Below are positions 6,163 through 22,023 of a stretch of DNA of 39,368 nt, one piece after another (positions within the stretch are counted from its first letter, which is position 1; every line of letters starts with the position of its first letter). The position numbers were made by a program, and so were the translations under genes. The notes under the pieces were generated by a model, which did not search any database, was not told the origin of the DNA, and saw only the letters and a program-made list of their open reading frames with translations. The DNA comes from Escherichia phage Sekstaphage-1: sequence record OR545379. One strand, written 5' to 3'.

Positions 6163-6182
6163 TAACCCTCACTAAAGGGAGA
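6160..6182 (+). promoter_or_regulatory. Phage RNAP promoter (phi1.3-like)
   Basis: tAATAACCCTCACTAAAGGGAGA. Confidence 0.85.
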
Positions 6183-19896: not shown

Positions 19897-20829
19897 ATGG
19901 CTGAATCTAATGCAGACGTTTATGCGTCCTTCGGTGTGAACAACGCGGTAATGACCGGAAGCACACCTACTGAACACGAACAGAATATGCTGAGTCTCGA
20001 TGTTGCTGCCCGTGATGGTGATGATGCAATCGTACTTAGCGAGGAACCAATCTCCAATTCTGATGACCCATATGCATCCGGTGTAGACCCGTTCGCTGAT
20101 GGTGAAGATGATGAGGGCCGCATTCAGGTTCGTATCAGCGAAGATGGCAATGAAGCCGAGTTCGACACTGATGGCGATAACTCTGAGGTGGAGACCGAAG
20201 GTGCGGACGTTGAGTTTGAACCGCTGGGTGACACTCCAGAAGAACTAAGCCAAGTGACTGAGCAATTAGGTCAGCACGAAGAAGGCTTTCAGGCGATGGT
20301 AGAGCAGGCGGTTGAGCGTGGACTTAGCGCAGACTCTGTGACCCGAATCTACGAAGAGTATGAAGCCGATGGTATCTCTGAGAAATCCTACGCGGAACTC
20401 GAAGCTGCTGGCTATAGTCGTGCCTTTGTGGACTCCTACATCTCCGGTCAGGAAGCCCTTGTAGACCAGTACGTCAATCAGGTAGTTGCCTTTGCTGGTG
20501 GTAAGGAGCGCTTTAGCGCAATCCATACGCACCTTGAAGCAACCAACCCGGCTGCTGCTGAGTCCCTTGAGTCTGCCATGATGAACCGAGACTTGGCGAC
20601 CGTCAAAGCGATTATCAATCTGGCTGGTGAGAGCTACACGAAGAAATTCGGTAAGCCTGCCAACCGTAGTGTTACCAAGCGTGCTACTCCGGTTAAACCC
20701 GTAGCTCGTCAGAAAGAGGGCTTTACGAATCAGGCTGAGATGATTAAAGCTATGAGCGACCCGCGCTATCGTAGCGATTCTGCCTACCGCCAAATGGTAG
20801 AACAGAAGGTTATCGACTCCAGTTTCTAA
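19897..20829 (+). CDS. 9: Capsid scaffolding protein
   Basis: 310 aa from ATG 19897 (MAESNADVYASFGVN...), acidic, collinear with T7 gp9; AGGAGA ribosome-binding site. The track start at 19837 is an upstream extension. Confidence 0.9.
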   Translation: MAESNADVYASFGVNNAVMTGSTPTEHEQNMLSLDVAARDGDDAIVLSEEPISNSDDPYASGVDPFADGEDDEGRIQVRISEDGNEAEFDTDGDNSEVETEGADVEFEPLGDTPEELSQVTEQLGQHEEGFQAMVEQAVERGLSADSVTRIYEEYEADGISEKSYAELEAAGYSRAFVDSYISGQEALVDQYVNQVVAFAGGKERFSAIHTHLEATNPAAAESLESAMMNRDLATVKAIINLAGESYTKKFGKPANRSVTKRATPVKPVARQKEGFTNQAEMIKAMSDPRYRSDSAYRQMVEQKVIDSSF

Positions 20830-20850
20830 TTAACCCTCACTAAAGGGAGA
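20828..20850 (+). promoter_or_regulatory. Phage RNAP promoter (phi10-like)
   Basis: AATTAACCCTCACTAAAGGGAGA, exact consensus. Confidence 0.9.
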
Positions 20851-20985
20851 GACCATAGATGCCTACAATGGTTGAATCACCTGAGCACAGAACTTTGTGG
20901 TCACTCCCATAGGTGAAACATTGAGAACCAACTCGATTCAAGTAGTAACCAAACTTTTCTTTAAATTAACATAAGGAGATTCAAC

Positions 20986-22023
20986 ATGGCTAACATTCAA
21001 GGCGGACAGCAAATTGGTACTAATCAGGGTAAGGGTCAGTCCGCAGCGGACAAATTGGCGCTGTTCCTGAAAGTGTTCGGCGGTGAAGTCCTGACGGCTT
21101 TCGCTCGCACCTCCGTGACCATGCCTCGTCACATGCTGCGCTCTATTGCTTCTGGTAAGTCCGCACAGTTCCCTGTGATTGGTCGCACCAAAGCTGCTTA
21201 CCTGAAACCGGGTGAGAACCTCGATGACAAACGTAAGGATATCAAACACACCGAGAAGGTAATCCACATTGATGGCCTGCTGACTGCGGACGTTCTGATT
21301 TACGACATTGAGGACGCGCTGAACCACTACGACGTTCGCGCTGAGTACACCGCACAGTTGGGTGAATCTCTGGCGATGGCGGCTGACGGTGCTGTACTGG
21401 CAGAACTGGCTGGTCTGGTTAACCTGCCGGACGCCTCCAATGAGAACATTGAGGGTCTCGGTAAGCCAACCGTACTGACTCTGGTTAAACCGACCGCTGG
21501 CGACCTTACAGACCCGGTTGAGCTGGGTAAAGCGATTATTGCTCAGTTGACTATCGCTCGTGCATCCCTGACCAAGAACTACGTTCCGGCTGCTGACCGC
21601 ACCTTCTACACCACTCCAGACAACTACTCTGCGATTCTGGCTGCCCTGATGCCGAACGCTGCAAACTATCAGGCACTGATTGACCCTGAGCGCGGTACTA
21701 TCCGTAACGTGATGGGCTTCGAAGTGGTTGAGGTTCCACACCTGACCGCTGGTGGCGCTGGTGATACCCGTGAGGATGCCCCGGCTGACCAGAAGCACGC
21801 TTTCCCGGCGACTTCCAGCACTACCGTTAAGGTTGCTCTGGATAACGTTGTTGGCCTGTTCCAGCACCGCTCTGCGGTTGGTACGGTCAAACTGAAAGAC
21901 TTGGCTCTGGAGCGTGCTCGTCGTGCGAACTATCAGGCTGACCAGATTATCGCTAAGTACGCGATGGGTCACGGCGGTCTGCGTCCAGAAGCTGCTGGCG
22001 CTATCGTGCTCCCAAAGGCGTAG
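20986..22023 (+). CDS. 10A: Major capsid protein 10A
   Basis: 345 aa, highly similar to T7 gp10A (MANIQGGQQIGTNQGKG...LRPEAAGAIVLPKA); AAGGAGA ribosome-binding site. Confidence 0.97.
   Translation: MANIQGGQQIGTNQGKGQSAADKLALFLKVFGGEVLTAFARTSVTMPRHMLRSIASGKSAQFPVIGRTKAAYLKPGENLDDKRKDIKHTEKVIHIDGLLTADVLIYDIEDALNHYDVRAEYTAQLGESLAMAADGAVLAELAGLVNLPDASNENIEGLGKPTVLTLVKPTAGDLTDPVELGKAIIAQLTIARASLTKNYVPAADRTFYTTPDNYSAILAALMPNAANYQALIDPERGTIRNVMGFEVVEVPHLTAGGAGDTREDAPADQKHAFPATSSTTVKVALDNVVGLFQHRSAVGTVKLKDLALERARRANYQADQIIAKYAMGHGGLRPEAAGAIVLPKA

Follow-up and report, generated by a model that had tools for sequence, protein, structure and literature searches.

Two predicted hairpins and an A/U-rich ribosome-binding region in the 141-nt leader of a T3-type capsid mRNA

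At the junction of genes 9 and 10, the window (the whole 39,368-bp stretch of DNA analysed here) encodes, as judged from its sequence, the 5' untranslated leader of a T3-type major-capsid (gene 10) mRNA, made by the phage RNA polymerase from the promoter phi10. Predicted folds divide this leader into three modules: a 5'-terminal stem-loop (hairpin I), an irregular second hairpin (hairpin II), and an A/U-rich spacer with the ribosome-binding sequence UAAGGAGA. We propose, with moderate confidence, that the modules form a functional stack, in which hairpin I would shield the 5' end, hairpin II would serve as a barrier or insulator, and the A/U-rich region with its strong Shine-Dalgarno (SD) sequence would direct initiation. 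By analogy with the T7 gene 10 (g10) leader, the most likely function of the whole would be mRNA stabilization combined with efficient translation. The anatomy of the leader, its conservation and its covariation are observed directly, and from them we infer the stabilizing, insulating and enhancing roles; all structures of the leader are predictions. The T3 leader sequence, with its promoter and gene annotation, has long been known. The leader is a variant of the g10-leader kind, and for the window alone it is a correct but ordinary finding on known T3 sequence.

The window is 100% identical to phage T3 over the gene 9-10 junction (20700-21100), and the leader alone is identical in T3 and T7M. 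In the first 25 kb the identity to T3 is ~96.6% across 94% of the sequence, as for a T3 relative, and the perfect match at the junction marks the window, on sequence comparison, as a mosaic one. The T3 genome is 38,208 bp long, with roughly 1.1 kb extra in the window. Gene 9, for the scaffolding protein, occupies 19897-20829 on the plus strand, as do all features described below (open reading frame list; T3 annotation of the identical sequence), and its stop codon (20827-20829) overlaps the first bases of phi10. This promoter, AATTAACCCTCACTAAAGGGAGA at 20828-20850, is a perfect match to the T3-type late consensus (-17 to +6) and carries the annotation 'T3 promoter phi10' in NC_003298; the window contains 12 T3-type promoters, where chance would predict 0. 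Because the T3 reference annotates the identical 23 bp as phi10 from -17 to +6, transcription is expected to start at G20845, which would give a leader of 141 nt (20845-20985). T3 shows the same arrangement, its 23-bp promoter being followed by gene 10, which begins 141 nt after +1. The first-pass annotation had counted about 135 nt from 20851; that position is the first base past the 23-bp promoter element, and the start had been placed 6 nt too far downstream. Gene 10A, encoding the major capsid protein of 345 aa, follows at 20986-22023 (open reading frame list; T3 annotation). No terminator-like site was found in 20400-21400, and the leader is therefore also internal to phi9 transcripts, which read through.

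For comparison, the phi10 promoter was located in each of 80 loci with capsids 78-99% identical to the window capsid. The 72 distinct leaders of these capsid relatives range from 64 to 260 nt in length, with a median near 137, and length differences among close relatives arise through gain or loss of blocks. The T7 leader is 63 nt long by both annotation and sequence, and leaders of the T7 lineage span 63-68 nt. A length of 141 nt is thus typical for the phage group, and T7 is the short outlier. The leader had been called long, and longer than that of T7 gene 10: the comparison with T7 holds (141 vs 63 nt), whereas relative to the group the length is unexceptional. The modules occur in the order GGGAGA, a variable segment closing in CUCCC, a conserved block, optional inserts, an A/U-rich spacer and ACAUAAGGAGAUUCAACAUG, the last being nearly invariant in the T3, KP32 and Berlin lineages.

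Hairpin I (20845-20908) is defined by its predicted fold and by a closing stem that is kept in relatives. The stem pairs 20845-20859 with 20894-20908 (GGGAG.GACCAUAGA / UUUGUGGUC.CUCCC, predicted), that is nt 1-15 with nt 50-64, in 14 bp with one A.A mismatch, and encloses a 34-nt interior, the 'cassette', which in T3 belongs to family F4. The folding energy of -21.9 kcal/mol (z = -2.95) was equalled by 1 of 200 shuffles. Both the minimum free energy (MFE) and the centroid structure of the T3 leader pair nt 1-5 with nt 60-64 (P(unpaired) 0.00 for nt 1-5), and the helix is thus predicted to start at nt 1. The 5' stem is retained despite sequence change: in the MFE structures of 64 of the 71 distinct leaders GGGAG pairs with a downstream CUCCC, however different the interiors (about 15 unrelated types). 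Nt 1-5 have a median P(unpaired) of 0.004 across leaders and of 0.287 with the downstream sequence shuffled, a comparison between mutually related leaders in which the p-value is indicative only. By these models hairpin I is more than a chance fold. Within the window, five of the seven GGGAGA-initiated transcripts begin with a predicted 5' hairpin of this kind. The T3-type late transcripts starting at 6177, 10453, 19811 and 32850 also have predicted hairpins from nt 1-3. That of the 10453 transcript (GGGAGACUUAACGUUUCCC) corresponds to R3.8 as annotated in T3 and closely resembles the T7 phi10 5' hairpin.

The interior of hairpin I is strikingly variable. Clustering at 70% yields about 15 unrelated cassette families (single linkage at 60% joined unrelated sequences). 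Phages of the KP32 lineage have a median identity of 92% in the gene 9 3' end, 100% in hairpin II and 98% in the gene 10 5' end, compared with 44%, which is chance level, in the hairpin I interior. Unrelated cassettes occur in 374 of the 482 phage pairs with both flanks at least 93% identical. Hypervariable cassettes were found in loci L010-L083, for example at L015:1382-1420, L016:1378-1422 and L061:1323-1418. At the same time, four families (F1, F7, F9 and F10) recur across lineages or genera with different promoters, at 70-83% identity. In family F1, 10 of the 22 predicted internal pairs are kept through two-sided changes between KP32-like and Berlin-like members (alignment A3; L010:1291-1381, L061:1323-1418), and these compensatory changes indicate that some cassettes at least are conserved structured RNAs. 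F1-type cassettes matched no Rfam family and no tRNA. In the L073 cassette (about 1355-1414), GAAGGTTCGAGTCCTTC resembles a T-arm and the closing stem an acceptor; a search of the cassettes with ARAGORN, L073 among them, found no tRNA.

In 97 Teetrevirus records, from many host genera, each genome has a single copy of the T3 cassette or of a sequence at least 95% identical to it. The cassette matched neither E. coli genomes nor any other position in phage genomes. Serratia phage SM9-3Y, also a Teetrevirus (L204, 417-541), is identical to the window in promoter core, hairpin II, spacer and ribosome-binding site and keeps the closing stem, but its interior, of family F7, differs and is 83% identical to the KP32-like cassette of L016; by sequence, SM9-3Y looks like a natural cassette swap inside Teetrevirus. 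A pure model in which anything that closes the stem will do would leave both the conservation of cassettes across genera and the compensation in F1 unexplained. Close relatives differ in cassette, the same family spans genera with different RNA polymerases and promoters, and at least one family keeps its helices by compensation. For these reasons we can envisage the 5' hairpin of the capsid-mRNA leader as a polymorphic locus, in which the fixed GGGAG and CUCCC enclose one of 15 or more alternative structured RNAs, with cassettes and hairpin II functional beyond end-protection; we regard this broader reading as speculative and quite unlikely. If true, the cassettes and hairpin II would be among the most abundant RNAs of late infection and could be host-specific stabilizers, decoys or anti-defence RNAs, the T3 cassette being one allele. 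We found no earlier report that hairpin I varies between genera in this cassette-like manner.

Hairpin II (20911-20951) is a conserved irregular hairpin, delineated by predicted fold, covariation and a covariance model. It consists of an outer GGU/ACC stem, a 2-bp middle AC/GU stem and a 6-bp inner AUUGAG/CUCGAU stem, with the hexaloop AACCAA and a 3' bulge UCAA. The block is found in the T3, KP32-like, Berlin-like and L046/L054-type lineages, in single copy and always upstream of gene 10, and all 15 sequence variants adopt the same architecture when folded alone. Covariation was scored on an in-register alignment of trimmed sequences (A2), in which 92.7% of cells are paired, compared with 26-48% when the partners are slid. 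Two-sided changes occur in 8 of the 15 pairs across four lineages, and an A-U to U-A swap is private to T3. Covariation scores 0.318, whereas shuffles give 0.125 +/- 0.025 (0 of 500 reach the observed value) and slid controls at most 0.036; only about four lineages underlie the score. The covariation thus argues that hairpin II is more than a chance fold. The T3 version is the weakest (-6.0 kcal/mol, z about -1), with a partly decayed outer stem. Unpaired bases are conserved as well, namely the UCAA bulge and loop positions xAxCAx, and the loop as a whole varies by lineage (AACCAA vs UAUCAC).

A 41-nt, 15-pair covariance model (R1) gives 57.6 bits for the window copy (E about 1e-14), a value that is not independent, the window sequence being in the training alignment. 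By this model neither the window nor the T3 genome has another copy, none of the annotated T3 RNase III sites matches, and no match at E <= 10 occurs in T7-like leaders or other leaders without the block. A degenerate pattern search of IMG/VR returned mostly chance matches and, after filtering, known sequence types only; a metagenome scan anchored on the T3 hairpin II gave two contigs only, both with the T3 cassette. Rfam 15 searched with the leader gave a best E above 1, far under gathering scores, and the leaders of nine relatives gave no match. No feature is marked at the leader in the hand-annotated relatives T3, Yepe2 and BA14, and a literature search returned nothing specific on the T3 gene 10 leader, on conserved leader structures in T7-like phages or on the hairpin II sequence. 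We thus found no published description of hairpin II. The first-pass suggestion that the leader may hold structure elements gains support from the two predicted hairpins, both backed by comparison with relatives.

The ribosome-binding region begins with the A/U-rich spacer AACUUUUCUUUAAAUUAACAU (20952-20972), identified from the sequence and by comparison with the T7 leader and its enhancer element Enh. It is followed by the SD sequence AAGGAGA at 20973-20979, which had been singled out as strong and is indeed there, 6 nt before the gene 10A ATG. UAAGGAG provides seven contiguous matches to the anti-SD, and the 6-nt spacer TTCAAC leads to the ATG at 20986. The 34 nt before the ATG (20952-20985) are 76% A/U. 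T7 carries the exact 9-nt Enh UUAACUUUA, which is absent from the T3-type leader, where only the 6-nt pieces AACUUU (20952-20957) and CUUUAA (20959-20964) are found. The g10 Enh is A/U-rich and boosts translation (PMC8748333), and A/U-rich leaders in general enhance translation, according to the passages of PMC6146998 and PMC8748333 that cite Komarova 2005. The leader may, on this sequence likeness, have a translational-enhancer role. It resembles A/U-rich S1-dependent enhancers in having its A/U-rich segment directly upstream of and around a strong SD, and differs from them in that this segment is predicted to pair weakly with its own SD. The sequence AUUCAA occurs three times in 65 nt, at 20936-20941 (the hairpin II bulge region), 20979-20984 (between SD and AUG) and 20995-21000 (gene 10 codons 4-5), which may be chance.

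The predicted pairing joins UUUCUUUA (20956-20963) to UAAGGAGA (20972-20979) in a weak SD-occluding hairpin (20956-20979; -4.3 kcal/mol, z = -1.9). With a P(unpaired) of 0.02, the T3 SD is the least accessible of 74 leaders (median 0.36), a prediction that fits poorly with maximal translation; ribosome binding should outcompete such pairing easily. We considered the SD-occluding pyrimidine tract as a conserved regulator and rejected it as a general one, because outside T3-type leaders the pairing is strong in no more than a few.

These features can be arranged into a model of leader function. Hairpin I would pair the obligatory GGGAG start with CUCCC and leave no single-stranded 5' end. By analogy with the T7 g10 stem-loop and with ompA-type stabilizers, it should in this way protect the mRNA against RppH and RNase E where these attack through the 5' end. 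The closing stem would then be the part retained across relatives, and the interior a replaceable cassette. Hairpin II would most likely provide a second structural barrier, or an insulator separating the variable cassette from the ribosome-binding region, and its conserved unpaired bases would leave room for a specific binding partner. Finally, the A/U-rich spacer and UAAGGAGA, 6-7 nt from the AUG, would allow very efficient initiation.

The model draws on two known systems. A helix that begins at the 5' end or at most 2 nt from it, with no single-stranded tail, blocks the 5'-end-dependent entry of RNase E and RppH. Stabilizing 5'-terminal stem-loops of this sort, of the ompA type, were reportedly described in E. 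coli mRNAs by Emory, Bouvet and Belasco in 1992. Hairpin I is predicted to share with them the helix from the 5' end and the lack of a single-stranded 5' tail; its sequence is unrelated, and its closing strand is dictated by the GGGAG with which transcription from the phage promoter begins. With the T7 g10 leader, the T3-type leader shares the phi10 late promoter, the GGGAGA start, a GGGAG-based 5' stem-loop, an A/U-rich stretch and a strong GGAGA SD before the capsid gene. The T7 leader differs in its 8-bp, 21-nt hairpin within 63 nt, where the T3-type leader has a 64-nt branched hairpin within 141 nt, and in having no hairpin II (no covariance-model match at E <= 10). The T7 5' stem-loop raises mRNA abundance and expression and stabilizes the mRNA, as stated in the passage of PMC6146998 that cites Mertens 1996.

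Other readings of the leader give weight to different parts of it. The first-pass annotation had drawn attention to a 17-codon upstream open reading frame (uORF), and this frame exists within hairpin I (MPTMVESPEHRTLWSLP*, 20859-20912), with an ATG at 20859, 17 sense codons and a TAG at 20910-20912. If translated and relevant, it could yield a micropeptide, or act on gene 10 translation by coupling or attenuation; a GGAG precedes the ATG by 9 nt, and none of the T3-type cassette variants seen interrupts the frame. Yet both the SD-like GGAG (+2 to +5, P(unpaired) 0.00) and the AUG (+15, 0.24) are buried in the predicted 14-bp stem of hairpin I, and the frequency of such frames is that of chance: 6 of 16 cassette families have an ATG-initiated frame of at least 10 codons, compared with 6.0 +/- 1.8 in shuffles, and a quarter of shuffled T3 cassettes yield one of at least 17 codons. 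The substitutions seen in T3-like phages are mostly nonsynonymous (P2T, T3I and E9D, against two synonymous), and the SM9-3Y cassette has no ATG and no uORF while the remaining leader is identical. Coupling to gene 10 also lacks the geometry, because 73 nt separate the uORF stop from the gene 10 ATG. A translated leader peptide is thus extremely improbable, and the uORF, which does not stand out as a notable feature, looks like an accidental by-product of T3's particular cassette sequence. Cleavage offers a further reading, in which hairpin I, hairpin II or both are sites where RNase III, or another endonuclease, cuts gene 9-10 read-through transcripts. T3 and T7 RNase III stem-loops such as R1.1, R1.3 and R3.8 are likewise intercistronic hairpins directly downstream of late promoters, the T3 sites R1.1, R1.3, R3.8, R6.5 and R13 adjoin late promoters, and the leader does lie inside phi9 read-through transcripts. 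When the ten annotated T3 sites were folded beside hairpins I and II, however, they formed unbranched helices, most of them with 19-20 predicted pairs (range 11-24) and most with a common CUCAAGGUC...GGCCUUUAUGA internal-loop core. Neither leader hairpin has this core. Hairpin I is branched, and hairpin II has 11 bp at -6 kcal/mol, with a model that matches no annotated site. None of the ten sites in the T3 reference falls in the leader, and no such annotation is found there in Yepe2 or BA14 either. The folds disfavour an RNase III role, which we consider very improbable.

The extra length relative to T7 might also be functionless, a historical residue of insertions or recombination at the promoter-gene junction, with only the ribosome-binding site of importance. 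T7 achieves massive gene 10 expression from a 63-nt leader with a 21-nt hairpin and without hairpin II, and the extra 78 nt are therefore dispensable in principle. The gain and loss of blocks among close relatives, and hairpin I interiors at chance identity between phages with flanks at least 93% identical, point the same way. Against this stand the compensatory changes that uphold hairpin II and the F1 interior, the retention of 5'-end pairing far above chance, and the near-identity of the T3 cassette in so many records and host genera. We judge a functionless leader improbable. A further reading makes hairpin II an operator, whose loop and bulge would be read by a phage or host protein, or by another RNA, that times or tunes capsid translation or mRNA fate. 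Its stems covary while the unpaired UCAA and xAxCAx stay conserved, a pattern that suggests sequence-specific recognition rather than a passive barrier; it is single-copy and gene 10-specific, and it lies 21 nt upstream of the SD. The analysis turned up no candidate partner, however, the loop depends on the lineage, T7 and several other lineages do without hairpin II altogether, and neither the literature nor Rfam yielded a record of it. An operator is therefore rather unlikely, and we retain the stack of 5'-end shield, barrier or insulator, and initiation region as our working model.

The T7 g10 leader, which is heavily used in biotechnology, is the stripped-down exception, most relatives including T3 having longer and modular leaders. 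If the modules control mRNA stability or translation, they would be ready-made, naturally diversified parts for expression design and a handle on capsid synthesis of T7-like phages in different hosts.

Several observations were made in passing among the relatives. In Klebsiella phage VSG32 (L209, 230-480), a 50-nt deletion fuses gene 9 to the uORF frame, with loss of the gene 9 stop, of phi10 and of the hairpin I 5' strand. We rejected it as a natural deletion of promoter and uORF: gene 10 in the same record is broken by a further, frame-breaking deletion, and an assembly artefact or a defective genome is the probable explanation. The record of Klebsiella phage PoeticCupcake (L208, 240-553) places two minus-strand 'hypothetical proteins' over the gene 10 region, where the plus-strand capsid gene belongs; these calls over the cassette are spurious, a mis-annotation. 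Some leaders, but not that of T3, contain a third module, a short hairpin with a covarying stem that can be written UGG-stem-GCGUAA-stem-CUAA (GGUCAGCGUAAUGACUAA, GGCUCACGAAACGAGCUAA, GGCCCACGUUACGGGCUAA and GGUCCACGAACGGACCAA). It occurs in L050, L074, L009 and L058 and in insert-bearing KP32-like leaders; in L010, for example, it lies about 60 nt ahead of the gene 10 ATG.
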